Assembly (NCBI GenBank): GCA_963824045.1
Contig: CAWGNW010000009.1
Coordinates: forward strand, 4,709 to 68,708
DNA length: 64,000 bases
Origin: an uncultured Gammaproteobacteria bacterium
GTDB lineage: Bacteria; Pseudomonadota; Gammaproteobacteria; UBA9214
Reading direction: 5' to 3'
The notes beneath the pieces were generated by a model. It did no database searches and was not told the origin of the DNA. It worked only from the letters and a program-made list of their open reading frames with translations. Both the position numbers and the translations under genes were made by a program. Each line of letters opens with the position of its first letter. Position 1 is the first letter of the stretch. Positions 8,590-54,260 of the stretch are shown piece after piece.

Positions 8590-9672
8590 ATGCCTATCGT
8601 GGCCCACAATGATTTGCCGACCTTTGCCCGCCTGCGCCAGGAGGGACAGACCATCCTGACGCCGGAACGCGCCGTGCGCCAGACTATCCGGGAACTGCAT
8701 GTCGGTGTTCTCAACATGATGCCGGACGCCGCCCTGGCGGCGACCGAGCGGCAGTTTTTCCGGCTGGTGGGTGAGAGCAATCCGATTGCGCAGTTCTACT
8801 TGCACCCCTTCACCCTGCCGGAGCTGCCGCGGGGCAGGCAGGCACAGGCGCACATCGCGCAGTATTACGATACCTTCGATCAGCTCTGTGCCGAGGGGCT
8901 GGATGCACTCATCATTACCGGCGCGAATGTCAGTCATCCGGACCTTTCACAGGAGCCGTTCTGGCAGCCGCTTAACGCGGTGGTGGAATGGGCCGTGGAG
9001 AACGTTACCTCTGTGCTGTGCTCCTGCCTGGCCACGCACGCGGTGATGCAGTTTCACCACGGCATGCGCCGCAGGCCGTTGCCGGCGAAGCGCTGGGGCG
9101 TGTTCCCGCATCGTGTGCTGCAGCCTCAGCATTCCCTGGTGAATGACGTCAATACCCAGTTCGACGTGCCGCATTCTCGCTTCAATGACATCAGCCGCGA
9201 GCAGTTCGAGGCGGCCGGTCTGCATGTCCTGGTCGAGAGCGAAATCGCCGGTGTACACCTTGCCGTCAGCGAGGACGGTTTTCGCGTGGTCTATTTCCAG
9301 GGTCATCCGGAATACGACACCGTATCCCTGCTGAAGGAATACAAGCGCGAGGCGCTGCGCTATGCCGCCGGCGAACGCGACGATTATCCGCCTTTCCCGG
9401 ATCACTATTTCAAACCGCGCGAGCAGGCGATCTTGGACGAATACCGGAAACGCGTTGACCAGGCACGCAAGCGGGGCGAGGCCCCGCCGGTTTTCCCCGA
9501 GGGCCTCGTGGCCGGCCGCGTTGATAACACCTGGCACGATACCGCGGAGGGCATCCTCGGCAACTGGATCGGACTGGTCTACCAGCTGACCCACCATGAG
9601 CGCGCGCTGCCGTTCATGGACGGCGTCGATCCGGCCAATCCGCTGGGGTTTATCACGAGTCCGGCAAGCTGA
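8590..9672 (+). CDS. metA: Homoserine O-acyltransferase (MetA family, homoserine O-succinyl/acetyltransferase)
   Basis: MPIVAHNDLP...ELHVGVLNMMPD...FFRLVGESNPIAQFYLHPF...IITGANVS...HSRFND...YFQGHPEYD is collinear with E. coli MetA. Confidence 0.85.
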   Translation: MPIVAHNDLPTFARLRQEGQTILTPERAVRQTIRELHVGVLNMMPDAALAATERQFFRLVGESNPIAQFYLHPFTLPELPRGRQAQAHIAQYYDTFDQLCAEGLDALIITGANVSHPDLSQEPFWQPLNAVVEWAVENVTSVLCSCLATHAVMQFHHGMRRRPLPAKRWGVFPHRVLQPQHSLVNDVNTQFDVPHSRFNDISREQFEAAGLHVLVESEIAGVHLAVSEDGFRVVYFQGHPEYDTVSLLKEYKREALRYAAGERDDYPPFPDHYFKPREQAILDEYRKRVDQARKRGEAPPVFPEGLVAGRVDNTWHDTAEGILGNWIGLVYQLTHHERALPFMDGVDPANPLGFITSPAS

Positions 9673-9774
9673 AGGATGCCCCGGCCTGGCAAGCCCTCCC
9701 GGCACCTTTGCCGGCGTACTGCGCCGTGGTTGGGCAGCGCTTGCGCAAGGCAGGCAATGAGTCAGTGGCAAACG

Positions 9775-10060
9775 TTAAATCAGAGAAAATATAGGGTTTT
9801 TACTGATTGACATTTGTCTGCATTTAGAGGCCGTCTATTTTTGAGTTATTCACCGCACAAATACAGACATAAAAAATACTAATAAAATAGAGCAAAGAGC
9901 TAATTATTTTTCCAGAAATTCGTAATAATTAATTGATATTTATATAAATATGTGTATTGGTTAAAAAATGCCCGATTTAACGAAAACCCTTTGTTTGTCA
10001 GGCCTGCAGTCGGTTATCCCTGTACTTGTCCACAGACTTATCCACAGGATTTGTGGATGA
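9775..10060. promoter_or_regulatory. AT-rich tract of about 230 bp followed by a cluster of DnaA-box-like 9-mers
   Basis: Positions 9775-9990 are strongly AT-rich in a >60% GC context. The boxes are TTATCCCTG (10010-18), TTGTCCACA (10026-34), TTATCCACA (10038-46, a perfect R-box) and TGTGGATGA (10052-60, reverse strand). The tract lies between the convergent 3' ends of metA and the SCO1-MauG gene. Confidence 0.5.
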
Positions 10061-10238
10061 GCGCGTGCCCCTTCCCGGGTGTTTGCACCGGAGAAGGGCG
10101 TGCAATTTACCCCAGGCAATTCAACCTGGCCCGTGCAGGGGACCGCAAGCACATCTCCGGCAAGGCGGACAGCAGCCTGTTGCCTGCCATCAGGACGCAA
10201 CATTCCGGGGGAAGTCCCACATCCGATTGGCGTTCGCT

Positions 10239-12146
10239 TCATGGGTCGCCCACGGGGGCTGCAATGGCGTCCGCGACAAGGATATCCACATTGTCCCCGG
10301 TCAGTGACATCAGGAAGGCAACCAGGTCGTCGATGTCGGTGGGGGTGAGGCCCAGTGGCTTGATCAGGGGGTCCAGGTTCGGGTTGGCCACACCGCCGGC
10401 GTTGTAGAATGTCACCACCTCCTGCAGGCTTCCCAGTGAACCATCATGCATATAAGGCGCCGTGAGTGCGATATTGCGCAACGACGGGGTCTTGTACTTC
10501 CAGCGATCAGCCGGGTCCAGGGTGATTTCATAACGTCCCAGGTCATTGCCCGGGTTGGGGATGACGTTGGCCAGCTCCAGGGTTTCGCCGGGTGCAACGG
10601 GGATGCTTGCCGCCACGGGTCTGCTGAAACTGGCCTGATAGCCGATGCCGGTATTGTGCAGTGCGTGATCGGTGAACAGGGCATGTGACGCCTCGAGTGT
10701 ATGGCAGCGACTGCAGCCAGCCTTGCCAGCGAAGAGGCGGAAGCCGCGGACCGCCGCTGCTGTCAGGGCATCCTGCTGATGGCCGAAATACCAGCGATCG
10801 AAGGTGCTGTTGGCAGACACCAGCGTGCGCTCGTAGGCGGCAAGCGCCTTGCCGAGGTTTTCCATGCCGGGTCCCTTGCCGGCGTATGCCGCCTCGAACA
10901 GGCCCCGATAGTCCGGCAGCCCCCTGATGCGTTCGAGCACAAAGCCTACTGACGGGTTGCCCATTTCGTTGGCTGCCAGTAACGGTCCCCAGACTTGCTG
11001 CTCCAGGTTTGTTTCGCGGGCATCATGGAACAGCTGCCTTGCATAGGCCACGTTGTAAAGCGTTGGGGCATTGCGGCGCACGCTGCGGCCCTCGATGCCG
11101 ACGGCCGTGGCCATTTCATTGACCGTGAATCCCTGTTCTGGCACATGGCACATGGCGCAGGAAATCGTGTTGTTGTGCGACAGGCGGCGGTCGTAGAACA
11201 GCTTCCTGCCCAGGTCGACAGCGGACCGGGTTAAGGGGTTGTCAGCGGGTTCCGGAACCGCCGGCAGGCCTGCTGGTGGCGGCTTGACGAACTGGAGCAG
11301 GTCCGCAGCCTTGCCCTGGCGGGTGGCCAGGCTTTTCGAGCGGGTTTGATAATCCGCGGAGGCATAATCGCGCCTGTCATCGCCGGGATCCTGCAAGGTG
11401 GGCCGGGGGCTGCCGGCCAGGCTGACTGCAGCGGGTTCGGCCATAAGGATGGTCTTGATGTCACTCACGAGGGTATCCGGGTGCAGGTACGAAACGCTGT
11501 AGATATTGCGAATGCGCGCCTTCCGGTCGATCAGGTAAACACGCAGGATATGCGACCAGGCACCGGTGGAATTGCCTTCCACATCGACTTCCTTCTTCAG
11601 GCTCTGGCCATAGGCCTGCAGCAGCGGTGTCAGCCTGGATTCCGATTCCGCCGTGAGAAACCACCAGTCGTTACCGGGTTTCAGGAAGGCCTTGCTGTAT
11701 TCGCGCAATACCTCCGGGGTGTCATGCACGGGATCGAAGCTTACGCTGATCAGGCGGACCGCTGCGTTGAGGTCGTCTTCCCGGGCAAGCCGCTGCTGTA
11801 CCTGACCCAGCACATAAGCCGCGAGCGGGCAGCCGTTGCTGTCGTTGCAGGAGGTATAAATGAAACTGAGCACGACAATGCGGTCGCGGAACAACTCATG
11901 CAGAGAATGCTCCACGCCGCTGCTGTCCAGCAGGCGCGCGTCCGCGGCCGCGCCCAGCGCCGGGAGTTCATAGCTGCCGGGGACCGGCGCGGCATACGGC
12001 AGCGGCAGGTAGCCCGGCGCCGGCTCCTGCCCGGTTGCATCCTGGTGCTGGCTATGGCCTGCACACGGAAGCGGCGACGCGACCAGTGTGGCAGCCAGCA
12101 CCCACCACGCCGGTTTGCAACCCTTCCGGCCCCCTGCAAATTTCAC
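10239..12146 (-). CDS. SCO1/SenC (thioredoxin-like copper chaperone) fused to dihaem cytochrome c peroxidase/MauG family domain
   Basis: The N-terminal part has the SCO1 motif FIYTSCNDSNGCPL. The C-terminal part has two haem motifs CAMCH and CSRCH plus a CCP/MauG-like core. Single ORF of 635 aa. Confidence 0.8.
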   Translation of the reverse strand: MKFAGGRKGCKPAWWVLAATLVASPLPCAGHSQHQDATGQEPAPGYLPLPYAAPVPGSYELPALGAAADARLLDSSGVEHSLHELFRDRIVVLSFIYTSCNDSNGCPLAAYVLGQVQQRLAREDDLNAAVRLISVSFDPVHDTPEVLREYSKAFLKPGNDWWFLTAESESRLTPLLQAYGQSLKKEVDVEGNSTGAWSHILRVYLIDRKARIRNIYSVSYLHPDTLVSDIKTILMAEPAAVSLAGSPRPTLQDPGDDRRDYASADYQTRSKSLATRQGKAADLLQFVKPPPAGLPAVPEPADNPLTRSAVDLGRKLFYDRRLSHNNTISCAMCHVPEQGFTVNEMATAVGIEGRSVRRNAPTLYNVAYARQLFHDARETNLEQQVWGPLLAANEMGNPSVGFVLERIRGLPDYRGLFEAAYAGKGPGMENLGKALAAYERTLVSANSTFDRWYFGHQQDALTAAAVRGFRLFAGKAGCSRCHTLEASHALFTDHALHNTGIGYQASFSRPVAASIPVAPGETLELANVIPNPGNDLGRYEITLDPADRWKYKTPSLRNIALTAPYMHDGSLGSLQEVVTFYNAGGVANPNLDPLIKPLGLTPTDIDDLVAFLMSLTGDNVDILVADAIAAPVGDP

Positions 12147-12179
12147 TGATGCGCTTCCCGTAATGTCAGTTCCGTTGCC

Positions 12180-13494
12180 CTAATACAGCGAATAGGCCCC
12201 GAACCGCATCTGGTGCGGGCTGCCGAGCTTCGCCTCCAGAAAGTCGATCGTGAACGCGGGTTGCAGCTGCTTGCCGTCCCAGTTGTAGGCTTTGAAGAAT
12301 TGCAGGTCACCGCCGGTGGCGGGCTGCTGCTTGTCCCAGTTGGCGAGCAGGGACGAGGTAAAGTAGATCCGCTTGCCATCCCAGCTTTGGGAGGCCATGT
12401 TGAGCTGTTCGCCGATTTTCTCGGCCAGAATCTGCCGGGGCTTGAAAGGATCGCTGATGTCATACAGGCGGGCCATGCCGTCGTTCCAGGTATCCACCCA
12501 CAGCAGCGTGTCATCCGCCGCAATCGACAGGTCCACCGGCAGCGGGAGCTTGCCGGGGTCGCCAATATCGGCGACTGCTTCAGCCTGCCATTCACCCTGG
12601 TCATCCTCGTATATCAGCCACAACTTCGAGGTCAGTGCGGTCATCGTGAAGCAGTAGTTGTGGTGCGGGCCCCAGGCGCAGCGAATCTCCAGCGGCGCCC
12701 CCGGTACGTCCAGAATCTTCTTCGGCTTGCGGGTATGCAGGTCCCAGACCACGACCGTATTGCCGAAGCGCTGCATGGCTTCGCTGTCCGCCATCAGCTT
12801 GCCGAGGTTCATCATGTAGTTGTTCCAGCCGGTGAACGAGGAGGTGATCATCACGTTGCGGCGCGGCAGTACGCGGACATCGTAGCCGTAGCCGTCGGCA
12901 AACTTGCCGGACTTTACCGCGCCCTGCAGATTGTCGTCGGTCGGCATCCAGTGGGTGGCGATGTATTCGCCGTCATTGGTGTATTCGACCAGCGCGGTGC
13001 GGCCGCCATGATCCCGGTTGTTGGAAAGACCGGTCAGCAGCATGCGCCCGGGCAGGGCATAGTTGGTATGCGGTCCGACCACGCCGCCGCTGGCTTTGAC
13101 AAAGTCCTCGATGACCTTGTGCAGTTTCGGATGTGGCAGGGTCGGTATGGATGTCGAAGATGAAGATCTTGCTGGTATCCAGACCCGAGGCCCACAGATA
13201 GCCGCGGTCGTCCGTCAGCCCGGAATGGTGTGCCTCGTTGCGGCCTCCGACCGACAGCGAGTCCACAACCTTGCCGTATTCCGGTGACTTCGGGTTGACG
13301 TCAATGGTGACCAGCTTGTCCTGCTCGTCACCGACACCCGGCGTGCCCAGTGTCCAGACGTAGACAAAATCTTCCTGGCCGACGATCTTGGCCATGTAGG
13401 GTGACATGCAGGTTTCGTCCGCCGAGACGGTCTGCAACGGTGTTGCGAGCAGCAGGACAAGGCACCAAGACCATGAATATAAGTTGATTTTCAT
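12180..13494 (-). CDS. mtoX: Selenium-binding protein SBP56 family / methanethiol oxidase (MtoX-like), interrupted by a single-base frameshift near 13135-13145
   Basis: The N-terminal frame has a signal peptide plus ...VDVNPKSPEYGKVV...HHSG...IFIFDIHTDPA. The C-terminal frame continues PKLHKVIEDF...PRRNVMITSSF...RIYFTSSLLANWDKQ. Both parts are collinear with human SBP1. A one-base indel in the ccctgcc run joins them. Confidence 0.75.
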
Positions 13495-13638
13495 TTGAAA
13501 CCCCCTCCGGTAAGTGGAATTGCCAGAGGCTGCATGAATGCCCGGTTTGTTATTCTCTGCTGGCAGCCTGCTGGTGTGAGCTTGATTTGCATGAGTATAG
13601 ACAAGAATCGGGGCTTGTCTGGGGCCCGGGAATCGCGC

Positions 13639-14682
13639 TCAACGGTCGTGTTCCCGTTCCAGGAAATACAGCTGCTTGTTGCCGAAGCCCTTGATCTCGA
13701 ATTCACCGCGCGATGTGCACTTGAATTCATCGTTGATCAGCCGCCAGGTTTCCTCGCAGAGGGTGATCTGCATGGGTTCGGACAGGCTTTCCATGCGTGC
13801 GGCCAGGTTCACGCCCGGGCCGAAGATATCGTAGACATACTTGTGAATGCCGACGATGGAGCCGATGACCGGGCCGGTATTGATACCGATGCGGCACAGC
13901 CAGGGCTCGGCGTGGGCGGCATTGCGGCGTTCCAGGTAGCGGCGGATGCGCAAGGCCACGCGGGCGACATTCTGGGCATGGTCGGGGTTGGCGTCCGGTA
14001 TGCCGGATACTGCCATGTAGGCGTCGCCGATGGTTTTGATGCGCTCGCACCCGAACAGCTCGACGATCCTGTCAAACGCCGTGAATATGTCATTCAACTC
14101 GGTAATAAGACCCGCCGGATCGTGGGAAATGGCCATGTCGGTGAAGCCGACGAAGTCCAGCAACATCACCGAGGCGCTCTCGAAACGCTGCGGGGTGGTC
14201 GTGCCGAAGTCTCTCATCTCCTCGTAGACTGAGCGGGGCATGATATTCAGCAGCAGCTTCTCGCCGCGTTCCTTCTCGCGGCGCAACTCGCGGGTGTGTT
14301 TTTCCTGCAGCTTCGAATACGAGTCCAGCAGGTATTCGGCCTGCTTCTGTTTGGAGATGTCATGGCACTCGACCAGCACCTGGTCCTGCCGGTGCGGGAG
14401 TTGCCGCAGTACGATCGCCAGCGGGGTGGTACGCGCGCCCACCTTGCTTTCATATTCGAAGCGGTAGGGGCGTTCGCTGCCGAGCCGGGCCAGGGCGCGC
14501 TCGGCCTGCAGTGCCGGGACCCGGATTGTCAGCGGCGCGTCGGCATCCTCGCCGGGCGGCAGCCAGTCGAAGAATTTCGCGTTCTCGAACAGGATGCTCC
14601 AGGTCGCCGGGTCCACCACCGCAATGCCGATGTCCAGCGTGTGGATCAGTTGCTTCAGGTCGGTGGCGCTTGCGTCCGTCAT
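13639..14682 (-). CDS. Class III adenylate/guanylate cyclase with N-terminal PAS-like sensor domain
   Basis: Cyclase core FTAFDRIVELFGCERIKTIGDAYMAVSGIP...VYDIFGPGVNLAARMES. The N-terminal ~150 aa are sensor-like. Its ATG overlaps the stop of the upstream globin gene (ATGA at 14679-14682). Confidence 0.85.
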   Translation of the reverse strand: MTDASATDLKQLIHTLDIGIAVVDPATWSILFENAKFFDWLPPGEDADAPLTIRVPALQAERALARLGSERPYRFEYESKVGARTTPLAIVLRQLPHRQDQVLVECHDISKQKQAEYLLDSYSKLQEKHTRELRREKERGEKLLLNIMPRSVYEEMRDFGTTTPQRFESASVMLLDFVGFTDMAISHDPAGLITELNDIFTAFDRIVELFGCERIKTIGDAYMAVSGIPDANPDHAQNVARVALRIRRYLERRNAAHAEPWLCRIGINTGPVIGSIVGIHKYVYDIFGPGVNLAARMESLSEPMQITLCEETWRLINDEFKCTSRGEFEIKGFGNKQLYFLEREHDR

Positions 14683-15041
14683 GATTTTTTGAGGATCATT
14701 GGCGCCCGCAGCTCGAGTTCGTTACGGACGGCGGCAATGTCGGAGGCGTCGAAGTCAAAGTCCTGCAGCGTTTCCGTCAGCAGTGCCACCATCTCGTCGA
14801 AGGCGCGGCGGTCAATGTCCATGTGGCGGTGCACGCGCTCGAGATGTTCGTCCGAGAAACTCGCCGGTCCTCCCATGAGATAGGCAATGAACTTGGTCTG
14901 GTGGTCGATGAGCCGTTTCATGTCGGTGTCCGCAAAGTACGGGCTTATGACCGGCGAATCGAGTACCAGGTCATAAAATGACATCACAATCCGGCTCACT
15001 TTGGCAAAGCCGCCGTGCCGTTCGAATATGGATTGTGACAT
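14679..15041 (-). CDS. Truncated haemoglobin (group I trHb-like)
   Basis: MSQSIFERHGGFAKVSRIVMSFYDLVLDSPVISPYFADTDMKRLIDHQTKFIAYLMGGPASF matches the trHbN signature (F..GG...FY..V..D......F......Q..F...GGP). Confidence 0.8.
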   Translation of the reverse strand: MSQSIFERHGGFAKVSRIVMSFYDLVLDSPVISPYFADTDMKRLIDHQTKFIAYLMGGPASFSDEHLERVHRHMDIDRRAFDEMVALLTETLQDFDFDASDIAAVRNELELRAPMILKKS

Positions 15042-18017: not shown

Positions 18018-18404
18018 ATGTGCTACGACATTATCGGTGATTTACACGGCTGCAACCTGACCCTGCAGGCCCTGCTGGAGAAGCCGGGTTACACAAGGCG
18101 CGACGCTGTCTACCGGCATCCGTCGCGGCGGGTAATATTCCTCGGGGATTTTATCGATCACGGGCCGCAGCAACGGGCCGTGCTGGACACCGTGCGTCCC
18201 ATGATCGCTGCAGGTGCCGCACTGGCGGTGATGGGTAATCACGAGTTCAACGCCATTGCCTGGGCCATCCCGGATAAATGGTGGATTATGCGCATGATGC
18301 GCCGCCGGTGTTTCCGGGGCACTACTGGATGGAGGGTGAGCCGGCCCCGCTGGCGGAAAATATGGCCACGGAATCCACGGAAGGAAACGGAGAAGATTTT
18401 TTGA
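18018..18404 (+). pseudogene. ApaH/PrpE-like metallophosphoesterase (Ap4A hydrolase/Ser-Thr phosphatase family), 3'-truncated by insertion of a MITE-like element
   Basis: MCYDIIGDLHGC...VIFLGDFIDHGPQQ...VMGNHEFNAIAW follows the PrpE/ApaH motif order GDxHG, GDxxDRG, GNHE. The reading frame runs into the inverted-repeat element at about 18360 after roughly 115 residues, with none of the C-terminal half present. Confidence 0.7.
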
Positions 18405-18503
18405 AAACTCCGCCGGCCTGAACCGGCGGGATCCGGTTACGGCAAAAGGCCGGACCGTGGGCTCGAAATGACAGTGTTTCCTTCCGTGGGTTCCGTGGCC
18501 ATT
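18361..18503. mobile_element. MITE-like element: ~30-bp terminal inverted repeats (TATGGCCACGGAATCCACGGAAGGAAACGG ... CCGTTTCCTTCCGTGGGTTCCGTGGCCAT-like) flanking a structured ~85-bp core
   Basis: The terminal arms are near-perfect reverse complements. The core holds a perfect 7-bp hairpin CCGCCGG-cctgaa-CCGGCGG. A shorter second copy is at 56519-56607. Confidence 0.7.
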
Positions 18504-19098: not shown

Positions 19099-19210
19099 GG
19101 TGGCTTGTACCGGTCCCCCCGCGACGATAAGCTGTGAACCCCGTCAGGCCCGGAAGGGAGCAGCGGCAGCAGTGGACTCGGGCGCCGGGGTGTGGCTGGT
19201 GCAGGTCACC
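19099..19210 (+). ncRNA. ffs: Signal recognition particle RNA (4.5S RNA, small SRP RNA)
   Basis: GTCAGGCCCGGAAGGGAGCAGC matches the conserved domain IV of bacterial 4.5S RNA (CAGGUCCGGAAGGAAGCAGC). The ends GGTGGC.../...GGTCACC can pair. It sits immediately upstream of dnaX, as in Pseudomonas. Confidence 0.7.
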
Positions 19211-19271: not shown

Positions 19272-20897
19272 ATGAGTTATCAGGTCCTGGCGCGCAAGTG
19301 GCGTCCCCGCGATTTCACGGAACTGGTCGGACAGGAGCATGTGCAGCGGGCGCTGGTCAATGCGCTCGATAACGACCGCCTGCACCATGCCTACCTGTTC
19401 ACCGGCACCCGCGGCGTCGGCAAGACCACCATTGCGCGCATCCTGGCCAAGTCACTGAACTGTGAAACCGGCGTCACATCCACGCCCTGCGGCAAGTGCA
19501 GCGCCTGCGAGGAGATCAATACCGGCCGCTTTCTTGACCTGATCGAGGTGGATGCGGCCTCGCGTACCAAGGTCGAGGATACCCGGGAACTGCTGGAGAA
19601 CGTGCAGTACGCGCCAACGCCGCGGCCGCTACAAGGTGTACCTGATCGACGAGGTGCACATGCTCTCGGGGCACAGTTTCAACGCCCTGCTGAAGACGCT
19701 GGAGGAACCGCCGCCGCATGTCAAGTTCCTGCTGGCGACCACGGACCCGCAGAAGCTGCCAGTGACCGTCCTGTCGCGCTGTCTGCAGTTCAATCTCAAG
19801 AGCCTGAGCGTGCCGCAGATCACCGGCCAGCTGGAAAAGATTCTGCGGCAGGAGGCGATTGCGGCGGAGCCGGGTGCCGTGCGCCAGCTCGCCTTTGCCG
19901 CGAGCGGCAGCATGCGCGATGCGCTCAGTCTGCTCGACCAGGCCATTGCCTTCGGTGGCGGCGACCTGCTGGAGTCCGAGGTGCGCAGTATGCTCGGGAC
20001 CATCGACCGCGATGTGGTGTATCGCCTGCTGGAGGCGCTGGCTGCGGGTGATGCTGCGCGGGTGCTCGCGGAGATCCGGAAGGCGGACGAGTTTGCCCCG
20101 GACTACGCCGCGCTGCTGGCGGACACGGTGTCGGTGCTGCAGCGCATTGCACTGGCGCAGACCCTGCCCGATGCCATCGACGATACCTATGGAGATCGTG
20201 AGGCGGTGCTTGCCCTGGCCGGTAAACTGCCTGCCGAGGACGTACAGCTGTATTACCAGATTGCCCTGATCGGGCGGCGTGACCTGCCGCTGTCGCCGGA
20301 ACCCCGGGGCGGTTTTGAAATGGTCCTGCTGCGCATGCTGGCCTTCCGCCCGGATACCGCCGCCAGGGTCGAGGCTTCGGCAGCCGGTACAGCCGCGGCT
20401 GCACCGGTGATGCCTGCGGCAGGCGCAGGCCCCGGCGGGTCCGCCGTGCAGGCCGCGGCGACTGCGACTGTAGCGCCGGCACCCCCGCCGGCGCCTCCCG
20501 CCAGTGCCGATGCAGCAACATGGGCCGGTATCGTGGAGGCACTGCCCGTCAAGGGGATGGTCCGTGAAATGGCGTTGAACTGCGCCTTTCACGGTGTCCA
20601 GGACGATGTTGTGCGGCTTTCCCTGGACCCCGCGCACAAGCACCTGCTGAGTCCGGCGCGTACCCGGCAGCTGGAGCAGGAACTGGCCACATACTACCAG
20701 CGCCCGGTGCAGCTGAAGATCGCAAACGAGGGGCCGCTGGCGAAAGAGACACCGGCACTGAAACGCAGCCCGCGAGCAGGTCGAGCGCCAGCAGCAGGCT
20801 GTTGCATCGATCGAGAATGACGCCAACGTCAAGGCGATTACCGGATGCCTTCGGCGGCGCCGTCAGCACGGATTCAATCCGGCCGCGGGATACGTAA
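19272..20897 (+). CDS. dnaX: DNA polymerase III subunits tau/gamma, interrupted by three apparent single-base indels (near 19617-19628, 20761-20772 and 20839-20848)
   Basis: Frame 1 reads MSYQVLARKWRP...GTRGVGKTTIARILAK...LENVQYAPT. Frame 2 reads RGRYKVYLIDEVHMLS...LLATTDPQKLPVTVLSRCLQFNL... The C-terminus RQAAREQVERQQQAVASIENDANVKAIT / DAFGGAVSTDSIRP is only recovered by two further frame changes and matches the E. coli tau C-terminus AIIADNNIQTLRRFFDAELDEESIRPI. Confidence 0.85.
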
Positions 20898-28110: not shown

Positions 28111-28929
28111 TTAAACTTCCAGCGGCAGTTCCGGGTTGTTGCCCCAGTCTGACCAGGACCCGACATAACCCCTGACGCGTTCAAAGCCCAGGCTTTGCAG
28201 CACCAGGCAGGTGTGCGCGGAGCGGTGATGGGTCTGGCAGTAGGCGATGATTTCCTTGTCGGGGGTGATGCCGCGCTCCGCCAGCAGGCCTTTGAGTTCG
28301 TCGGCAGGCTTCAGGCGCAGGTTGCTTGCCTGATCCATGGCCTCGGTCCATTCGAAATTCACAGCGCCGGGTATGTGGCCGGCGCGTTCGGCGTATTTCT
28401 TGATACCCTTGTACTCGTCAGGGCTGCGGGCATCCAGCAGGACGCAGTCGTCCCTGTTCAGGTGCGCCATGATGTAGTCGCTGTCCGCGCTGGATGCCGT
28501 GTCGCGGTGCACCTCGAATACCCTTGCGACGGGCGTCGCCGGGACTGAATCCAGGGTGTGTCCCTCGTTCACCCAGGCATGCAGGCCGCCGTTGAGCAGT
28601 GACAGGCTGTGATGGCCGGCGACTTCCAGCGTCCACAGCAGGCGGGCAGCGCGGCCGCCACCCTCGTCATCACAGGCAACGATGTGTGTCCGGGCATCGA
28701 TCCCGATGTTGGAGAATACCGCGGCCAGTGTGGCGTCGTCCGGTACCAGGCCCATCACCGGTTTTTGCGCGGTGATGATCCTGGCGTAGTCCAGGTGCAC
28801 CGCGCCGGGCACATGAAATTTTGCATAGCTTTCAGGCCTGGAGAGATCGACCACCAGCAGGTCATCGCGTCCCAGGTTCGCCTCCAGTTCATCCGGTTCC
28901 AGTAACAGGGGCAACTTGTCCGTTGTCAT
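28111..28929 (-). CDS. Tandem-domain rhodanese-like sulfurtransferase (thiosulfate/3-mercaptopyruvate sulfurtransferase family)
   Basis: Two rhodanese domains. The active-site loop is CQTHHRS. Confidence 0.8.
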   Translation of the reverse strand: MTTDKLPLLLEPDELEANLGRDDLLVVDLSRPESYAKFHVPGAVHLDYARIITAQKPVMGLVPDDATLAAVFSNIGIDARTHIVACDDEGGGRAARLLWTLEVAGHHSLSLLNGGLHAWVNEGHTLDSVPATPVARVFEVHRDTASSADSDYIMAHLNRDDCVLLDARSPDEYKGIKKYAERAGHIPGAVNFEWTEAMDQASNLRLKPADELKGLLAERGITPDKEIIAYCQTHHRSAHTCLVLQSLGFERVRGYVGSWSDWGNNPELPLEV

Positions 28930-39292: not shown

Positions 39293-40268
39293 ATGGCTGT
39301 AAGAAATCGCCTGCATCGCAGTGAACTGGCTGTTCCCGGAAGCAATATCCGCATGCTGGAAAAGGCGCCCACTGCCGGCGCCGACGTGGTATTCCTGGAT
39401 CTGGAGGATGCCGTTGCACCGGATGACAAGGCGCAGGCCCGCAAGAATGTCATCGAGGCGCTGAATGACATGGACTGGTCGAACTGCTCCGTGTCCGTGC
39501 GGATCAACGGGCTGGATACCCACTACTGCTACCGCGACATCGTCGACGTGGTCGAGCAGGCCGGTGACAAGCTCGACACCATCCTGATTCCCAAGGTAAA
39601 CACTCCCGCTGACATTCTGTTCGTCTCGACCATGCTGGAGCAGATCGAGGCCGCGAAGGGCTATGATCCCGATCAACCTGCACATCCTGATCGAGACCGC
39701 CAGGGGCATGGCGAATGTGGAAAGCATTGCGCAGACCTGCCCCGAACGCCTCGAGGCCATGGTCTTCGGGGTTGCGGATTACGCCGCATCCACCCAGGCG
39801 CGCACCACCAACATGGGCGGCGCCAACCCGGATTACTACACCCTGACGCACCCGGACGAGCAGGGCAGGCGCGAGCGTCACTGGGGCGACCAGTGGCATT
39901 TCGCGATCTCGCGCATGGTTGTCGCCTGCCGTGCCTACGGCTTGCGCCCGATCGACGGGCCTTTTGGTGACTTCAACGACCCGGACGGCTATCTCGCCGT
40001 TTCCAGCAGTGTCGCGGCCCTGGGTGTCGAGGGCAAGTGGGCCATCCATCCGTCGCAGATTGCGCTGGCCAACCAGATATTTACCCCGGCCGCGAAGGAA
40101 GTTGACCGTGCCCGTCGCATCCTGGCGGCGATGGCAGAGGCCGCCCGGGAAGGCCGCGGCGCAGTGGCGCTTGACGGGCGCCTGATCGATGCCGCCTCGA
40201 TTCGCCAGGCACAGGTGCTGGTGGACAAGGCCGACCAGATCGAGAAATCCCTGGCGGGCCGTCATTAA
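39293..40268 (+). CDS. mcl: HpcH/CitE-like lyase, probable malyl-CoA lyase, with apparent indel near 39665-39674
   Basis: Frame 1 reads SELAVPGSNIRMLEKAPTAGADVVFLDLEDAVAPDDKAQARKNVIEALND...ILIPKVNTPADI. The +1 frame reads IPINLHILIETARGMANVESIA...VDGPFGDFND...GKWAIHPSQIALANQIFTP. Both are collinear with L-malyl-CoA lyase. Confidence 0.75.
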
Positions 40269-40291
40269 CGCAAAGAAGCGGAGAAGCTGAC

Positions 40292-41461
40292 GTGAATATT
40301 CATGAATATCAGACCAAGGAACTGCTGCGCGGCTACGGCGTGCCGGTTCCGGATGGCCGTGTGGCCCACACCGTGGACAATGCTGCCACGGTAGCCGAGG
40401 AACTTGGCGGTGAACGCTGGGTCGTGAAGGCGCAGATCCATGCCGGCGGCCGCGGCAAGGGCGGCGGGGTAAAGGTCGCCTCCAGCATCGATGAGGTCAA
40501 GCAGTTCACGGACCACATGATAGGCAGCCACCTGGTGACGCCGCAGACCGGACCGGAAGGCCGGCTGGTGCAGCGCGTGCTGGTCGAGCAGGCATCCAGC
40601 ATCCGGAAGGAATTCTACCTCGGCCTGGTCATCGATCGCGCCACCCAGCGCATCACCGTCATCGCCTCGGCCTCGGGCGGCATGAATATCGAGGAGGTCG
40701 CCAGGACCCACCCCGAACGCGTGATTCGCGAGGCCGTCGACCCGGCGGTCGGGCTGATGCCGTTTCAGTGCCGCAAGATCGCCGCGCAGATCGGTCTCAC
40801 CGGCAAGCAGATCAACGAGGCCACCAAGCTGATGCGGTCTCTGTACCGCTGTTTCCGCGACAAGGATGCGCTGCTGGCGGAAATCAATCCGCTGGCGGAA
40901 GTCGACGGCGGCAAGCTGATTGCGCTGGACGCCAAGATGTCCTTTGATGGCAATGCCATGTTCCGTCGTCCCGGCATCACGGAACTGCGCGACTTCGACG
41001 AGGAAGATCCGAAAGAGGTCGAGGCCACCGCCCACGGTCTGAACTACATCGCACTCGATGGCAACGTCGGCTGCATCGTGAACGGTGCCGGACTGGCCAT
41101 GGCCACCATGGATGCCATCAGTTTCCACAATGGCAAGCCGGCCAACTTCCTCGATGTCGGCGGCGGCGCCTCGCCGGAAAAAGTGGGCAATGCCTTCCGT
41201 ATCGTGCTGCAGGACCCCAACGTCAAGATCATCCTGGTCAACATTTTCGCCGGCATCAATCGCTGCGACTGGATCGCCGAGGGGCTGGTGCAGGCAATGC
41301 GCGATCAGCATATCGAGGTGCCAATCGTGGTGCGCCTAGCCGGGACCAACGTCGAGAAGGGCGGTCCGATCCTGGTGGAGTCCGGCTTCCCGTTTATCAT
41401 GGCCGAAAACCTGGATGATGCCGCCACCAGGGTCATGGCTGCGCTGGAGGGTTTGTCATGA
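40292..41461 (+). CDS. mtkA: Succinyl-CoA-synthetase-like ligase beta subunit, probable malate-CoA ligase (malate thiokinase) large subunit (GTG start)
   Basis: ATP-grasp motif MNIHEYQTKELL...VVKAQIHAGGRGKGGGVKV and the SucC/MtkA signature GIVNGAGLAMATMD. It directly follows the lyase gene. It is not in a sucABCD context. Confidence 0.75.
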   Translation: MNIHEYQTKELLRGYGVPVPDGRVAHTVDNAATVAEELGGERWVVKAQIHAGGRGKGGGVKVASSIDEVKQFTDHMIGSHLVTPQTGPEGRLVQRVLVEQASSIRKEFYLGLVIDRATQRITVIASASGGMNIEEVARTHPERVIREAVDPAVGLMPFQCRKIAAQIGLTGKQINEATKLMRSLYRCFRDKDALLAEINPLAEVDGGKLIALDAKMSFDGNAMFRRPGITELRDFDEEDPKEVEATAHGLNYIALDGNVGCIVNGAGLAMATMDAISFHNGKPANFLDVGGGASPEKVGNAFRIVLQDPNVKIILVNIFAGINRCDWIAEGLVQAMRDQHIEVPIVVRLAGTNVEKGGPILVESGFPFIMAENLDDAATRVMAALEGLS

Positions 41462-42327
41462 GCGTCTTCGTCCACAAACATTCACGCGTCATTATCCAGG
41501 GTTTCACCGGTCAGCACGCAACCTTTCATGCCGAAGAGGCCATGCAACACGGCACCACCGTGGTTGGCGGCGTGACGCCCGGGAAGGGCGGCATGACCCA
41601 TCTCGGCCTGCCGGTATTCGACACGGTGCACCAGGCGGTGCAGGAAACCGGCGCCGATGTCAGCGGTATTTTCGTGCCGCCGCCCTTTGCCGCCGATGCC
41701 ATCATGGAGGCGCTGGAAGCCGGGGTCGGGGTGGTGGTGGTAATCGCCGACGGCATCCCGGTCCAGGACATGGTGCAGGTGAAGCGCTACGCCGCCGATC
41801 GCAACGCCGTGATCATCGGGCCGAACACGCCGGGCATCATCACACCCCGGGCCTGCAAGGTCGGCATCATGCCGTCACATATCTACACGCCGGGCCGCAT
41901 CGGCGTGGTGTCGCGTTCCGGTACGCTAAACTACGAGGCCGTGCAGCAGATGTCCGTGCTGGGCATGGGCCAGTCGACCTCGGTCGGCATCGGTGGCGAC
42001 CCGGTGAACGGCACCGATTTCGTGACCGTGCTGCGCGCCTTCGAGGAAGACCCCGAAACGGATGCGGTGATCATGATCGGCGAGATCGGCGGGCCGCAGG
42101 AAGTTGATGCGGCGCGCTGGGCGCAGGAAAACATGAGCAAGCCCATCGTCGGCTTCGTGGCCGGCGTGTCGGCGCCGCCCGGGCGGCGTATGGGTCACGC
42201 GGGCGCCATCATCTCCGGGGAAGCCGATACCGCGAATGCGAAAATGGACCTGATGGCGGAACTGGGCGTGCACGTGGTGCGCAATCCCGCCCTGATCGGC
42301 GAGACTGCCCACCGGGTGTTTTCCTGA
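41458..42327 (+). CDS. mtkB: Succinyl-CoA-synthetase-like ligase alpha subunit, probable malate-CoA ligase small subunit
   Basis: CoA-binding fold VIIQGFTGQHATFH and a phospho-His region. Its ATG overlaps the mtkA stop (ATGA). Confidence 0.75.
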   Translation: MSVFVHKHSRVIIQGFTGQHATFHAEEAMQHGTTVVGGVTPGKGGMTHLGLPVFDTVHQAVQETGADVSGIFVPPPFAADAIMEALEAGVGVVVVIADGIPVQDMVQVKRYAADRNAVIIGPNTPGIITPRACKVGIMPSHIYTPGRIGVVSRSGTLNYEAVQQMSVLGMGQSTSVGIGGDPVNGTDFVTVLRAFEEDPETDAVIMIGEIGGPQEVDAARWAQENMSKPIVGFVAGVSAPPGRRMGHAGAIISGEADTANAKMDLMAELGVHVVRNPALIGETAHRVFS

Positions 42328-50149: not shown

Positions 50150-50631
50150 GACTTCCCCCGTCTGACCGCATAGCAGCTTATATATACCCGAAGATGTCAT
50201 GAGGAGTATCAGGGCAGTTGCAATTTGCGCAACAAACACCTGCCCGAACAGGCATGATGATTTCATAGTGATCTACCCGAAAACCCTGCCCGTTTCTGGA
50301 TTTACAGCCAGAAATTTGTTGTTGATTCTTGACTGTTATCCCAACCATATCCCAACAGCATATCCACCATCAGGCTCTGATAGATTCAGGATGACACATA
50401 TACCGCGTTATCAGTTCGCAGATGTTCCAAACGGGTCGTTACCCGTCCTTCAATGTAATCCTGTACCAGAAAATCCTCCAGGGCCGGGTTCGGGCAGCTT
50501 CTTGTCGTTCTTCAGATTCGGTCGCGTTTCTGAAAAGCAGCAACCCCGGTCTTTTGGCAGCTGGAGAAGTTGAAAAAGAAAACATTGGGATGATCCACAA
50601 TGAGGGCTTGATCAACTGGTCCTTGATACAA

Positions 50632-50922
50632 TTAACTGGACACGAGCTTATCAACTTCCTGCTCTGCCTCGACCCAGTCCTGCAACTCGCCCCCTGGTTC
50701 GAACCCCCTGTTTTCTGCCTTATGGTAGGCAGTGATGGCAATCATCTTCCAGCGTTCCTCTGGCGAAATGTTTATCGACGATATATCCGGCATGGAGGTG
50801 TTTGCGGGGTTCTTTGCGACCTTTCTCGTGGTGGTTTTCTTTACGTTGACTGCCTTTTTCTCGGGCACTGCTTCCTTGGCAGCTTTCTTCGTGGAAGATT
50901 TCTTTTTGATAGGGGGATTCAT
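50632..50922 (-). CDS. DUF2934 domain protein with Lys-rich N-terminus
   Basis: C-terminal EERWKMIAITAYHKAENRGFEPGGELQDWVEAEQEV matches the DUF2934 consensus. AGGAGA lies 6 nt upstream of the ATG. Confidence 0.7.
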   Translation of the reverse strand: MNPPIKKKSSTKKAAKEAVPEKKAVNVKKTTTRKVAKNPANTSMPDISSINISPEERWKMIAITAYHKAENRGFEPGGELQDWVEAEQEVDKLVSS

Positions 50923-51767
50923 GACACTCTCCTGTCAGTTGATGGTAGACACTCTGGTTTGTTGAAAACAGGTGGAGACATTGAGGGTTCCTGTACTCGT
51001 ATGTCGCCAAGGTTACTTTTGTAAAAAAAACGCATTATCCCACCAACAACCCGGGATGTCTTGCCTTGCTCGGGTATGCAGTTCCGGTGACTCAACCCGG
51101 GAAGAGTATGTTCCCGTGTGTGCACCGGGTCAGTATGTCGTGAGTGCCGGGAAACGATCGTGTGTACCCTGTCTTTGCGCAAGGGCGCATGCTCCAGAAT
51201 CACAATAACTTGCCCCTTTCCCGGGTCCCCGGCCTGCTTCCGGCGGGGCACTGCGATCATCCTTTTCGAAAGACTGTTGATCCCGTTCCGCCATGTTTCC
51301 ATTCCTCCCTGTTTGCGTTCCTTGTTCAGGGCTTCGCGCCAGCCGACATCCCGGGCGAGTCGAATCGGCACAGTATACTCAACCCTGTCAGCACCTTGCC
51401 AGGTGTCGAGTGTTTTATGCCCCTTTATAGACCGTGTACAGGAAACATAGCCGACGCATCTCGAGACAATCCAGCCGATAAACGGGGTGGATTCAGCGGT
51501 TATATCCTGTTCAGTCCAGGGGCGATATTCCCCGGGTTCCCGTGAAGGCCAGGTAAGTACCGGCAGACCTTCGGTTTCTGCCCACTATCTGGTAATACCG
51601 GCAATCAGCCTGCAGGAGTTGGCGGGGGTCGGTGGATGGCAGTCGGACGAAATGTCTTGCGGTATCCCGTTCTTGCACAGGAGCAGCTGGCATGCGCGGC
51701 GGCTCGTATTGAGATGCCGCCGGGGACCGTCGCGAATCACACTGCGACTGCGCTGCGCCAGAAAAGC

Positions 51768-51800
51768 AAAAGGCCCGCACCAGGATGCAGGCTTTTTACT
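51768..51800. terminator. Bidirectional rho-independent terminator downstream of the Gly/Tyr-rich protein gene
   Basis: AAAAGGCCCGCAccaggaTGCAGGCTTTTT: a stem flanked by an A-run and a T-run. Confidence 0.45.
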
Positions 51801-51910
51801 CTATGGTACGCCCGGTGTATCCGTGGCTGACTGGTCGGTCAGCTTTTGCCCCCGGCATTACTGCACAGGCATATTTCCGGACCTGTTTACCCGGTACATT
51901 CTGTTCGGTC

Positions 51911-52297
51911 CTATTCAGGCAGCCTTGGTGGAGGGGCGGCTTGCTCTGCGCCACTTGTCGGGTTTACAACAATGGTCCTCTGCTGCCCGTAACCACCATA
52001 ACCACCATAACCGGGATAGCCACCATAACCACCATAACCACCATAACCGGGATAGCCACCATAACCACCATAACCGGGATAGCCACCATAACCATAGGGT
52101 CCACCTCCGTAGCCGTAGGGTCCATAGCCTCCGTAATCACGGTCATAATACCTGTGATGATCATTGTCATTGTTAAACCACTTGTCCGGCTTCATCATGT
52201 TGCCCATATCGAAGGCCTGCGCGACATTCGCCGCAGCGAGAATTGTCATGCCAAGGGCAGTTCCTGTTGCTACTGAAATGATTTTTATCCGATTCAT
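51911..52297 (-). CDS. Secreted glycine/tyrosine/proline-rich low-complexity protein
   Basis: Signal peptide MNRIKIISVATGTALGMTILAAANVAQA, then DRDYGGYGPYGYGGGPYGYGGYPGYGGYGGYPGYGG... GAGGT lies 8 nt upstream of the ATG. The DNA underneath is a near-perfect tandem repeat (ccaccataacc-type units). Confidence 0.55.
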   Translation of the reverse strand: MNRIKIISVATGTALGMTILAAANVAQAFDMGNMMKPDKWFNNDNDHHRYYDRDYGGYGPYGYGGGPYGYGGYPGYGGYGGYPGYGGYGGYGGYPGYGGYGGYGQQRTIVVNPTSGAEQAAPPPRLPE

Positions 52298-52646
52298 TAC
52301 GGTTACCTCATGGTTGCCATTATTTAACTCGAACCCGGGTTCAAGCAGTTTAACCAGTAATCAGGTGGGCCAGGTGACTGTGCATATCTTCAAATGAGCT
52401 GACTTCCACATATACCCGCTTATAAAACAGACAGCCATACTGCATGATTTACAAACATATTGCATGGTAATCTTGTGCAACGCTGCCTTGGTGGCAGGTG
52501 CCATGGAAAATCCCTGCCGGAATAATATTTGCCCTGCGTCTGGGGACAGTGTAATCGAAATCCCTTGTCGGGTAATTCCTGAAGGGCTATAAGTCAGTTT
52601 GCGCCCCTGGTTTATCGTATTAAACAAAGCCGGTTCGGGGATAATA

Positions 52647-53387
52647 ATGAAATATCTGTATATTTTTATGATCCTGAGCCTGCCTTTGATCTGTCGGGCA
52701 GATACCTATGAATCCACACTGCTGGTACAAACCGGTGAAATGCGAGAGGGTGACCTTATCGTGCGTACCGTCACCGATCTGGAAAGCAGCAGGATCTGTC
52801 TGGCATTTTATATTCGAACCACTGGCACGAGCCCCGTGATGAACTGTTACGATGCTGTTTCCGGATATGCTTCCAATATCAGTCAGGTCGGGAACTTCAA
52901 GGAAGAACAGCTGATTGTCCGTAAAATAAAGGATACCCTGAACGACATATCCTGCCTGGTGGCTTACGTGGGTACGCCTGGAACCTCTCCATCCATAGAC
53001 TGTTACAAAAGCAGGAAGTCCGCCACTGATGAGCTGGTGCGAGACGGGCACCTGCGGGAGGGCGATCTCGATATTTACCGGGTCGTGGACAAGGATAGTA
53101 CAAAGACCTGTCTGGTTGCCTATGTCTCTACCAGTGGTACCGCACCTTCACTGAAATGCTATAACAGCAATTCGGGAGGCAAGGGCGGACTGGTTCAGAG
53201 CAACTCTTTACGCAAGGGTGACCTCATTGTGCGCAAGATCGTCGATCACGCCAACCGGGAAGAATGTCTGATTTCCTATGTCAGTACAGAGGGCACTTCT
53301 CCGGGTATCAACTGTTTCGATGCTGTTTCCACTCCCCTGCGCAGTGTTCCTCCAACAGTATCCATCCCGGTTAGCCCGAAGCGTTGA
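52647..53387 (+). CDS. Secreted protein built from four tandem ~52-aa repeats (GDLIVR-x-V-D-x5-CL-x-YV-x-T-x-GTSP-x3-C[YF]), no known family
   Basis: Signal peptide MKYLYIFMILSLPLICRA. Four repeats each carry two conserved Cys. The gene lies in a lower-GC island. Confidence 0.6.
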   Translation: MKYLYIFMILSLPLICRADTYESTLLVQTGEMREGDLIVRTVTDLESSRICLAFYIRTTGTSPVMNCYDAVSGYASNISQVGNFKEEQLIVRKIKDTLNDISCLVAYVGTPGTSPSIDCYKSRKSATDELVRDGHLREGDLDIYRVVDKDSTKTCLVAYVSTSGTAPSLKCYNSNSGGKGGLVQSNSLRKGDLIVRKIVDHANREECLISYVSTEGTSPGINCFDAVSTPLRSVPPTVSIPVSPKR

Positions 53388-53985
53388 GTTCAACAGCCTG
53401 AATTGACGGCTGCACTTGATCCGGTTCGCCACGTTCTGCCACCACAACCCTGTCTTGCCCTGGAATGTCGACTTGCAGTTGCGAGATTGCGCTAAGGAGG
53501 AGGGTATTTATATCCCGGCAAATGTGGCGATGGCGGCAGGCTGGCGATCAGCGTTTCCCATGCACGTGCCGGCAGCAGGTATAACACGGCAGGCTTGTCA
53601 ATGTCCGTGCCGAACACCGAATCCCGTACAGGAAGACACGTGTCGGGGTCAGGGAGTGCAGAACTTCTTTCCACCAAACCTCACGATGAACAGTAAAGGC
53701 AGCGGAAACAAGATAAAAATTGTTCCTCTTTGGAAACCGATTCCATCCAGGAAGGCTTCCCTGTGACAGTTGCCTGCTACAAGAACAGGACACTCCCCTT
53801 GATCAGGCATGTACTGTATTTAATTTTTAAAAAACAAGGCAATACATTGACTGCCCTGATCCCCCGGTGTTCGGTGAACAAGCATATAGAGCTGAAATGG
53901 CCGGGCAGCGGCGCTGTTTGCCAGGCGCAGTCGGGTGTAATGGAGCGGCGGAGAGGTTCGACGCTCCGGGGAGCGTACTGCGCAA

Positions 53986-54011
53986 TGAAAAACGGCGACC
54001 CGGAGGTCGCC
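53986..54011 (-). terminator. Orphan rho-independent terminator (minus strand)
   Basis: Perfect 7-bp stem GGCGACC-cgga-GGTCGCC. Read on the minus strand it is followed by TTTTTC. No convincing CDS lies upstream of it on that strand. Confidence 0.4.
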
Positions 54012-54260
54012 GCGTAATGAATCCCCACCGTGAAAAAAGCACAATGATGTGCAAAAAAGCAGTGCGGACGAACTACAGGATAGCAGCTGGCAAATTGCAG
54101 TAATATTGTGGAGACTACGTAGCGTGAGGAATAAACTCCGGAAATCGCCTGACTGAACACATTGGCAGTAACCTGTGGATGGTATTCCGGCCATGCGTAA
54201 TAAATTCGCGGCTGCCAGTAATGCTGCGTACCTGCACCGATACCTTCAGGAAAATACCTC

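Follow-up and report, generated by a model that had tools for sequence, protein, structure and literature searches.

Clusters in which a gene for methanethiol oxidase (mtoX) is accompanied by SCO1/senC and mauG were first described in Hyphomicrobium sp. VS, the source of a purified copper methanethiol oxidase, where the two accessory genes are separate (PMC5739008). In Ruegeria pomeroyi DSS-3, SPOA0268 to SPOA0271 encode an IclR regulator, MtoX, a SCO protein and a MauG-like protein, respectively, the last two being separate genes with a 4-nt overlap; a formaldehyde dehydrogenase gene lies downstream, and both the function of mtoX and its induction by methanethiol have been shown genetically (PMC5739008). 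Clusters 1 and 2 of the gammaproteobacterium Methylophaga thiooxydans DMS010 consist of a gene for a Sec-exported MtoX followed by a SCO1/MauG-type dihaem fusion gene, whose expression rises together with that of mtoX on dimethylsulfide (PMC5739008; PMC6548844), and they extend to tlpA-like, persulfide dioxygenase, sulfide:quinone reductase and sulP genes (PMC6548844). The same fold family includes the cytosolic enzymes human SELENBP1 and Roseobacter denitrificans RdMTO, which catalyze a copper-dependent reaction yielding H2S, H2O2 and formaldehyde (PMC13603461). As to the dihaem component, MauG (tryptophan tryptophylquinone biogenesis) and MbnH (formation of kynurenine in the copper protein MbnP) share a dihaem c-type fold, contain two CxxCH motifs, have a tyrosine as axial ligand where peroxidases have a methionine, and are each genetically coupled to their own substrate protein.

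The window analyzed here, 64,000 nt of DNA from an uncultured gammaproteobacterium, possesses a locus with the three functions of the Hyphomicrobium cluster in the same order (compared by description), and this association, pointed out in an initial annotation of the DNA, was borne out. With a probability of about 80%, the locus represents a two-gene periplasmic methanethiol oxidase module, composed of mtoX and a fused gene with a probable maturation role, in which a one-base insertion at nt 13134 is likely an error and mtoX is probably intact.

Organization of the locus

The SBP56 gene and the following SCO1/SenC-MauG fusion ORF were found on the minus strand of the region in which they had been reported, with the features listed below. 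Their close spacing on one strand was also confirmed, except that the gap is 33 nt instead of 34.

13135-13494, minus strand: 5′ segment of mtoX, codons 1-120 (open reading frame)
13420-13494, minus strand: putative Sec-type signal peptide, MtoX residues 1-25 (by inspection)
13225-13230, minus strand: codons for His89 and His90 of MtoX (by alignment)
13134, minus strand: one inserted base (coding-strand A), shifting the mtoX frame by +1 (by comparison with intact orthologues)
12180-13133, minus strand: 3′ segment of mtoX, codons 121-437 plus stop (open reading frame)
13068-13070, minus strand: codon for His142 of MtoX (by alignment)
12213-12215, minus strand: codon for His427 of MtoX (by alignment)
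12180-12182, minus strand: mtoX stop codon
12147-12179, minus strand: intergenic spacer, 33 nt
12154-12159, minus strand: GGGAAG, Shine-Dalgarno-like site, 7 nt 5′ of the fusion-gene start
10239-12146, minus strand: SCO1/SenC-dihaem fusion gene, 635 aa, GTG start at 12146
11514-11900, minus strand: SCO1/SenC thioredoxin-fold domain, residues 83-211 (Pfam)
11829-11849, minus strand: Cx5C motif C100-N-D-S-N-G-C106 of the SCO domain
10254-11270, minus strand: dihaem MauG/MbnH-like domain, residues about 293-631
11145-11159, minus strand: haem motif CAMCH, residues 330-334
10701-10715, minus strand: haem motif CSRCH, residues 478-482
10404-10406, minus strand: codon for Tyr581, at the position of MauG Tyr294 (by alignment)

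The operon is bordered by cyclase, globin, nupC and homoserine O-succinyltransferase genes; those upstream of mtoX encode a truncated globin and a class III cyclase, and the cluster ends with the fusion gene, which converges on the homoserine O-succinyltransferase gene. Thus the cluster lacks the downstream extension present in Methylophaga (compared by description), as well as the IclR regulator and formaldehyde dehydrogenase genes that flank the Ruegeria genes. A general regulatory tie to the globin and cyclase genes was rejected, since this arrangement was confined to three close relatives (L001, L084 and L085) and did not occur at any of the 80 loci from other species. A scan of nt 9600-13800 for promoters and terminators gave nothing above chance (two promoter-like sequences versus 1.4 expected and one terminator-like sequence versus 4.1 expected).

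A rhodanese gene at nt 28111-28929 had been taken as further support for organosulfur metabolism. Its product is similar to SseA/3-mercaptopyruvate sulfurtransferase and the gene is located beside GlcD/GlcF-like genes, 15 kb from the operon and across dnaX, recR and rsgA; only one of the 80 other loci listed had a rhodanese gene at 5 kb or less from the accessory gene. On account of the distance, the different gene surroundings and the rarity of co-occurrence, a link between the two was ruled out and this support was dropped.

The SBP56 protein and the one-base break in its gene

Searches and alignments of the SBP56 protein were carried out with the frame-corrected sequence, one base being removed. 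The joined protein matched Pfam PF05694 (SBP56) at residues 25-431 with an E value of 2.7e-51, and scored 742.1 bits against the NCBIfam equivalog model for methanethiol oxidase, NF052453 (cut-off 650), the match spanning residues 24-436 and profile positions 2-405 of 408. It shared 67% identity by tblastn, or 64% over 430 aligned columns, with SPOA0269 of R. pomeroyi, which is annotated as mtoX. Plasmid-borne matches were bimodal, with six at 60-80% and 69 below 60% identity, those listed beneath the MtoX group having 26-30%. In a neighbour-joining tree, the protein fell within the MtoX clade and far from other SBP56 proteins, three of which, included as outgroups, were 29-30% identical to it. 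Eyice et al. 2017 (PMC5739008) recognized MtoX by clade placement together with a full-length identity to a characterized MtoX of no less than 52%, and the window protein lies within both bounds. The same authors proposed His89, His90, His140 and His412 of the Hyphomicrobium enzyme as copper ligands (PMC5739008); these correspond to His89, His90, His142 and His427 here, which were invariant in all 23 MtoX sequences and in the three outgroups. Two tryptophans, Trp250 and Trp386, likewise did not vary between the clades.

The N-terminus, MKINLYSWSWCLVLLLATPLQTVSA immediately followed by DETC, resembles a Sec signal peptide on inspection: a hydrophobic core and a basic residue are present, Asp26 is preceded by V-S-A, and the profile match begins at residue 24. 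Cytosolic SBP56 proteins, compared here through the three outgroup proteins, belong to a different clade and have neither a signal peptide nor SCO or MauG partner genes. The His-His pair is common to both, as is the histidine that opens the HxxH motif. Where the S. tokodaii SBP56 motif HTVH has its second histidine (SELENBP1 His140, PMC13603461), the aligned residue in the window protein is Tyr (GPHTNY). Equivalog score, identity to SPOA0269, clade and conserved histidines all agree with the original reading of the gene as mtoX-type, and two of its proposed checks, phylogeny against characterized MtoX and retention of the copper-binding histidines, came out in its favour. The SBP56 protein is thus an MtoX-type methanethiol oxidase whose activity is predicted by similarity.

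The indel reported in mtoX was traced to a single extra base at nt 13134. Codons 1-120 (13494-13135) and codons 121-437 (13133-12183) are one frame apart, and the window reads GCC-A-CATCCG where intact orthologues read GCC-CATCCG, a context that is not a homopolymer. The extra base is missing from contig L084 (98.8% identity across 7.46 kb) and also from L001 and L002; comparison with L084 revealed no second indel, either in mtoX or in the other complete genes. The 14 homologue clusters sharing at least 88% identity all have a length of 437 aa, close homologues overall are intact at 437-438 aa, and no split mtoX occurred among about 60 copies in other genomes. Exact-pattern scans of a metagenome-contig collection, with zero or one extra base allowed at the site, matched neither allele, not even the intact one known from L084, which shows that these samples are absent from that collection. 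Both parts of the split frame match orthologues at 89-92% identity, as the adjoining genes do, and have accumulated no further substitutions or stops. In addition, at least seven more single-base +1 shifts were observed in the window, in dnaX (three), ybaB, rsmI, an M48 peptidase gene and a malyl-CoA-lyase-like gene, at the following positions.

19620, 20768 and 20842: +1 shifts in dnaX
21018: +1 shift in ybaB
about 24670: +1 shift in the M48 peptidase gene
about 39650: +1 shift in the malyl-CoA-lyase-like gene
about 62700: +1 shift in rsmI

All eight shifts have the same direction, for which the chance would be about 0.4% given equal odds of insertion and deletion. Five of them could be aligned, and each of these proved to be a one-base insertion. 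The gene dnaX is essential, and one of its shifts falls between the Walker A and Walker B motifs.

Because at least seven further +1 shifts are present, including those in essential dnaX, and because the base is absent in relatives, the insertion at 13134 most likely arose through insertion-biased error in sequencing or assembly and is not a sign of gene loss. If the frameshift were real, mtoX would be a recent pseudogene and methanethiol oxidation would have been lost with the accessory gene still intact. The extra base is unambiguous in the sequence and outside any homopolymer, a true strain-specific inactivating mutation would look identical, and some real decay or rearrangement has occurred nearby, that is, a genuine-looking internal deletion in a Metallophos gene common to L084, an inversion of 141 bp and, downstream of the fusion gene, the loss of a UPF0114 gene. 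Nevertheless, the uniform direction of the eight shifts, the intact copies in L084 and all close homologues, and the unblemished halves make recent gene loss distinctly improbable. As for programmed +1 ribosomal frameshifting or transcriptional slippage, two long open frames do span the shift site with an overlap of about 110 nt (12973-13082), but 13134 lacks a slippery or homopolymeric sequence, the zero frame continues for 53 codons with no stop or rare codon nearby, and the site is not conserved, the frame being uninterrupted in the 98.8%-identical relative and all others. This comparison effectively refutes such decoding. In the organism, mtoX is therefore probably intact and functional.

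The SCO1/SenC-dihaem fusion protein

That SCO1/SenC and MauG functions reside in one ORF was upheld by the finding of both Pfam domains in the 635-aa protein, which comprises, in order, an N-terminal signal or anchor, the SCO1/SenC domain, an Ala/Pro-rich linker and the dihaem domain. Residues 83-211 matched PF02630 (SCO1-SenC) with 49.4 bits against a cut-off of 22.8, B. subtilis Sco was matched in the PDB, and this part was 36% identical to SPOA0270. The classic CxxxC copper motif is absent from the SCO domain; the cysteines are instead spaced as Cx5C (C100-NDSNG-C106), and alignment with B. subtilis Sco (CETICP) takes a 2-residue gap. This spacing was invariant in 12 fusion proteins and was also present in SPOA0270, with which the window protein shares the motif C-x-D-x-N-G-C-P-L. 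His199, aligned with the distal Sco histidine, is conserved. As judged from these alignments, Cx5C is a variant of the copper motif and not a loss of the site.

In a database search, fused homologues numbered in the thousands. Among 80 loci, one per species, taken from the matches listed in a genome-contig search, 31 had the fused gene, which directly followed mtoX in 26, and 28 had separate SCO and MauG genes, with mtoX upstream in 27; linkage to mtoX was thus found in 53 of the 59 fused or split loci. Since the fusion is common among these loci and has already been described in M. thiooxydans (Eyice et al. 2017, PMC5739008; Kroeber & Schaefer 2019, PMC6548844), the fused architecture is a common, published variant with no novelty.

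The C-terminal part matched PF03150 (CCP_MauG) at residues 309-457, with a second cytochrome c region in addition, and was 54% identical to SPOA0271. Both CxxCH motifs (residues 330-334 and 478-482) were invariant in the 12 fusion proteins, as was Tyr581, which aligned gap-free with residue 294 of MauG, the tyrosine of MbnH (DIYSEGG) and the methionine of the P. aeruginosa peroxidase (AIMG); the corresponding tyrosine in Ruegeria lies in FYNAGG, as in the window protein. Among NCBIfam models, the best matches were MbnH (TIGR04039) with 250.7 bits (cut-off 362.85) and MauG (TIGR03791) with 202.7 (cut-off 443.85); the peroxidase subfamily model gave 19.7. By sequence, the domain is related to MbnH and MauG but belongs to neither equivalog, and differs from both in being fused to a copper chaperone. 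Genes for their substrate partners, mauA/mauB of methylamine dehydrogenase and mbnP, were not found in the 64-kb window.

By analogy with characterized orthologues, the module would operate as follows. MtoX would be a Sec-exported, copper-dependent SBP56-family enzyme converting methanethiol to formaldehyde, H2S and H2O2. The downstream gene would provide one membrane-anchored or periplasmic polypeptide combining a SCO1/SenC-type copper chaperone with a MauG/MbnH-type dihaem domain, for which maturation of MtoX seems the most likely role: the SCO domain may deliver copper, and the dihaem domain may use H2O2 or O2 to modify apo-MtoX oxidatively.

Two other readings bear on this proposal. The dihaem domain could be a periplasmic cytochrome c peroxidase, tethered to the copper chaperone, that clears the H2O2 formed by MtoX, a reading that bears solely on mechanism and leaves the identity of the operon untouched. 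H2O2 is indeed a product of MtoX (PMC5739008), bacterial peroxidases score higher than MauG in sequence matches to the PDB (150 versus about 87 bits), databases name such proteins cytochrome c peroxidase, and catalase and peroxiredoxin are induced alongside MtoX in M. thiooxydans, which makes peroxide stress relevant (PMC6548844). However, the methionine ligand of the His/Met electron-transfer haem of bacterial peroxidases is replaced in the alignment by the invariant Tyr581, as in MauG and MbnH, and this favours a maturation role; the NCBIfam scores point the same way, and the domain is strictly linked, at the genetic level, with mtoX and a copper chaperone, which recalls the logic of MbnH-MbnP and MauG-methylamine dehydrogenase. 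A peroxidase is thus considered unlikely. That the SBP56 protein serves a different function, for example in selenium binding or in oxidizing another thiol, is very unlikely: SBP56 enzymes do accept other short alkyl thiols (PMC13603461), but the equivalog cut-off is exceeded, the protein shares a clade with the genetically tested SPOA0269, the gene context is diagnostic, and every mtoX-carrying isolate tested by Eyice et al. degraded methanethiol (PMC5739008).

Against the maturation role stands the observation that SELENBP1 and RdMTO obtained from E. coli are active with copper alone (PMC13603461), which implies that a MauG-made cofactor is not a general requirement of the fold. On the features aligned above, it can be tentatively suggested that the accessory protein is a dedicated two-in-one maturase, with a family-specific Cx5C copper site and a Tyr-ligated dihaem domain that may install a protein-derived modification required for copper binding or catalysis by MtoX, whereas cytosolic SBP56 oxidases would have no such need. 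This suggestion concerns the whole family and not the window in particular.

Implications

The operon is an already described system that had been correctly annotated, and for the family-level question of how SCO-MauG proteins act on MtoX the locus offers no special handle. The assembly contains at least eight single-base insertions in 64 kb of coding DNA; with insertions this frequent, genes that look like pseudogenes in this assembly should not be given a biological interpretation. For the organism itself, an uncultured gammaproteobacterium with 62% G+C, the operon marks a probable methanethiol consumer and is thus relevant to organosulfur cycling.

The mtoX operon and the identity of its first gene

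The operon and the genes directly upstream of it were arranged as follows.

10239-13494, minus strand: mtoX and the SCO1/SenC-MauG fusion gene
13639-15041, minus strand: truncated-globin gene (120 aa) and class III adenylate/guanylate cyclase gene (347 aa), overlapping by 4 nt, directly upstream of mtoX

As the initial annotation had described, an SBP56-family gene is followed on the same strand by a SCO1/SenC-MauG fusion gene, with a spacer measured as 33 nt rather than 34 bp. The fusion gene (10239-12146) encoded a 635-aa protein from a GTG start, preceded by GGGAAG and located 33 nt past the mtoX stop, while mtoX appeared as two minus-strand ORFs overlapping in different frames, of 173 aa (12973-13494) and 300 aa (12180-13082).

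With the extra base removed, MtoX matched Pfam SBP56 from end to end, and its score against the methanethiol oxidase equivalog model, NCBIfam NF052453, was 742 bits (cut-off, 650 bits). Plasmid records found by tblastn with MtoX were bimodal, six sharing 60-80% identity and the other 69 less than 60%; those listed below the MtoX group shared 26-30%. The six included SPOA0269 (67% identity), annotated as mtoX on the megaplasmid of Ruegeria pomeroyi DSS-3. In a neighbour-joining tree of 27 sequences, the window protein grouped inside the MtoX clade and not with the other SBP56 proteins, to which a long branch led. This clade takes in Ruegeria, Methylocystis, Thiobacillus, and Pseudovibrio, and isolates of the last three degraded methanethiol (Eyice et al. 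2017, PMC5739008). The proposed copper-ligand histidines, His89, His90, His142, and His427, were all kept and invariant in the alignment, and no SCO or MauG neighbours were observed beside the inspected non-MtoX SBP56 genes. The interpretation as a methanethiol-oxidase-type operon is correct.

The split mtoX frame and similar shifts

Upon three-frame translation, the mtoX residues running through FIFDIHTDPA resumed one frame over as HPKLHKVIEDF... By tblastn, residues 1-120 of an intact 437-aa orthologue fell at 13494..13135 and residues 121-437 at 13133..12183, leaving one surplus base, 13134. The one-base indel reported previously was confirmed. The base is absent from the close relative L084, which shares 98.8% identity with the window over 7.46 kb and encodes an intact 437-aa MtoX (99% identical), and no other indel occurs in mtoX or in the remaining complete genes of that alignment. 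All 14 homologue clusters with at least 88% identity were 437 aa long.

Similar shifts were present in other genes. Relative to the syntenic contig L085, dnaX carried single-base insertions at 19620, 20768, and 20842, and ybaB one at 21018; the first dnaX insertion sits between the Walker A and Walker B motifs, and the repaired N-terminus gave a continuous DnaX profile match (positions 1-142). Three further genes, each with full-length Pfam coverage after rejoining, were split by a +1 shift.

~24670, minus strand: M48 peptidase gene
~39650: HpcH/malyl-CoA-lyase-like gene
~62700: rsmI

Including mtoX, at least eight single-base +1 shifts were found in six genes, 8/8 in the same direction; for five of them an alignment with an intact relative was possible, and each of these proved to be a one-base insertion, in several cases not within a homopolymer. 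To our knowledge, an organism would not survive three frameshifts in dnaX, so that insertion-biased assembly error is the economical reading, at a rate that these counts suggest to be about one insertion for every 8 kb of coding sequence. Judged from sequence comparison, the mtoX shift is very probably an assembly artefact (roughly 85-90%), and the only oddity of the operon, its split mtoX, is most likely technical.

Surroundings of the operon

Only the close relatives L001, L084, and L085 kept the gene order nupC, truncated globin, class III cyclase, mtoX, and fusion gene; none of 80 loci from other species did. The globin-cyclase pair may form a cyclic-nucleotide module that senses gas or redox state. 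In L001 and L085, a UPF0114 gene comes after the fusion gene. That gene was missing here, and the corresponding interval of the window (9673-10238, about 570 nt) was non-coding and contained a segment very rich in AT (about 9780-9990), against a genome G+C of 62%. Among the matches listed, the nearest named homologues of this uncultured gammaproteobacterium were from gammaproteobacterial MAGs and Methylococcales.

Other features of the window were as follows.

19108-19204, plus strand: bacterial small SRP RNA (Rfam RF00169, 68.9 bits), just upstream of dnaX
28111-28929: rhodanese, an SseA-like two-domain sulfurtransferase adjoining GlcF/GlcD-like genes
51911-52297, minus strand: Gly/Tyr-rich secreted protein, 128 aa
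52599-53387, plus strand: 262-aa secreted protein with four ~60-aa repeats

The rhodanese, previously taken to support organosulfur metabolism, lends no support to an organosulfur island; dnaX, ybaB, recR, a HIT-family gene, rsgA, and others lie between it and mtoX. The 64-kb window yielded no tRNA genes.

A Metallophos (ApaH/PrpE-like) gene (18018-18370, plus strand) was without residues 88-244 of the 314-aa L085 orthologue; because the gene is also short in L084, the deletion appears to be real and not an error. Between it and a 130-aa ORF, a 141-bp segment (18362-18502), inverted relative to L084 and with 27-nt inverted repeats (96% complementary) around an 87-nt core, may represent either a small invertible element or an inversion mediated by a hairpin. 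At 39293-42327 (plus strand), the malyl-CoA-lyase-like gene was followed by two succinyl-CoA-synthetase/malate-thiokinase-like genes, an arrangement typical of serine-cycle or glyoxylate-assimilating methylotrophs. The stretch at 50150-54260, holding both secreted-protein genes, was low in G+C (0.51-0.54 versus about 0.62) with few convincing genes, and may be a foreign island.

The SCO1/SenC-MauG fusion protein

The fusion is not new; it belongs to a published operon type, of which this system is a textbook example. A SCO1/MauG fusion has been described in Methylophaga thiooxydans (Eyice et al., PMC5739008), and both Methylophaga fusion genes are induced by dimethylsulfide, their products being proposed to process exported pre-MtoX (Kroeber & Schaefer 2019, PMC6548844). 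Our search gave 3817 significant homologues, both domains being present in nearly all of the best 120. In a set of 80 loci representing different species, 31 had the fused architecture (mtoX immediately upstream in 26), 28 had separate SCO and MauG genes (mtoX upstream in 27), and 15, distant relatives with identity of at most 46%, were MauG-only without mtoX. In four loci (L004, L009, L019, and L023, from a few Methylococcales and other genomes) no mtoX lay within 5 kb upstream of the fusion gene, and the fusion protein there may serve another client protein.

By Pfam, the protein possessed SCO1-SenC (residues 83-211), CCP_MauG, and a second cytochrome c region; it had two CxxCH motifs. Its N-terminal part shared 36% identity with R. 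pomeroyi SPOA0270 (SCO) and its C-terminal part 54% with SPOA0271 (MauG-like); the characterised cluster's two accessory genes are therefore joined end to end in it. The SCO cysteines were spaced as Cx5C (C-x-D-x-N-G-C-P-L, residues 100-106; 11829-11849, minus strand) instead of the canonical CxxxC, a spacing that did not vary among 12 fusion proteins and that the unfused SCO protein of Ruegeria has as well. This motif, invariant in mtoX-associated SCO domains whether fused or separate, was not found described in the literature consulted. In the dihaem part, Tyr581 stood where bacterial cytochrome c peroxidases have their Met ligand, and it aligned with MauG Tyr294 and the MbnH tyrosine; the best NCBIfam models were MbnH and MauG, each below its cut-off, and the peroxidase model gave only 19.7 bits. 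Because of this tyrosine and these best models, the role favoured, as predicted by alignment, is a MauG/MbnH-like, protein-oxidising one, over mere removal of the H2O2 made by MtoX.
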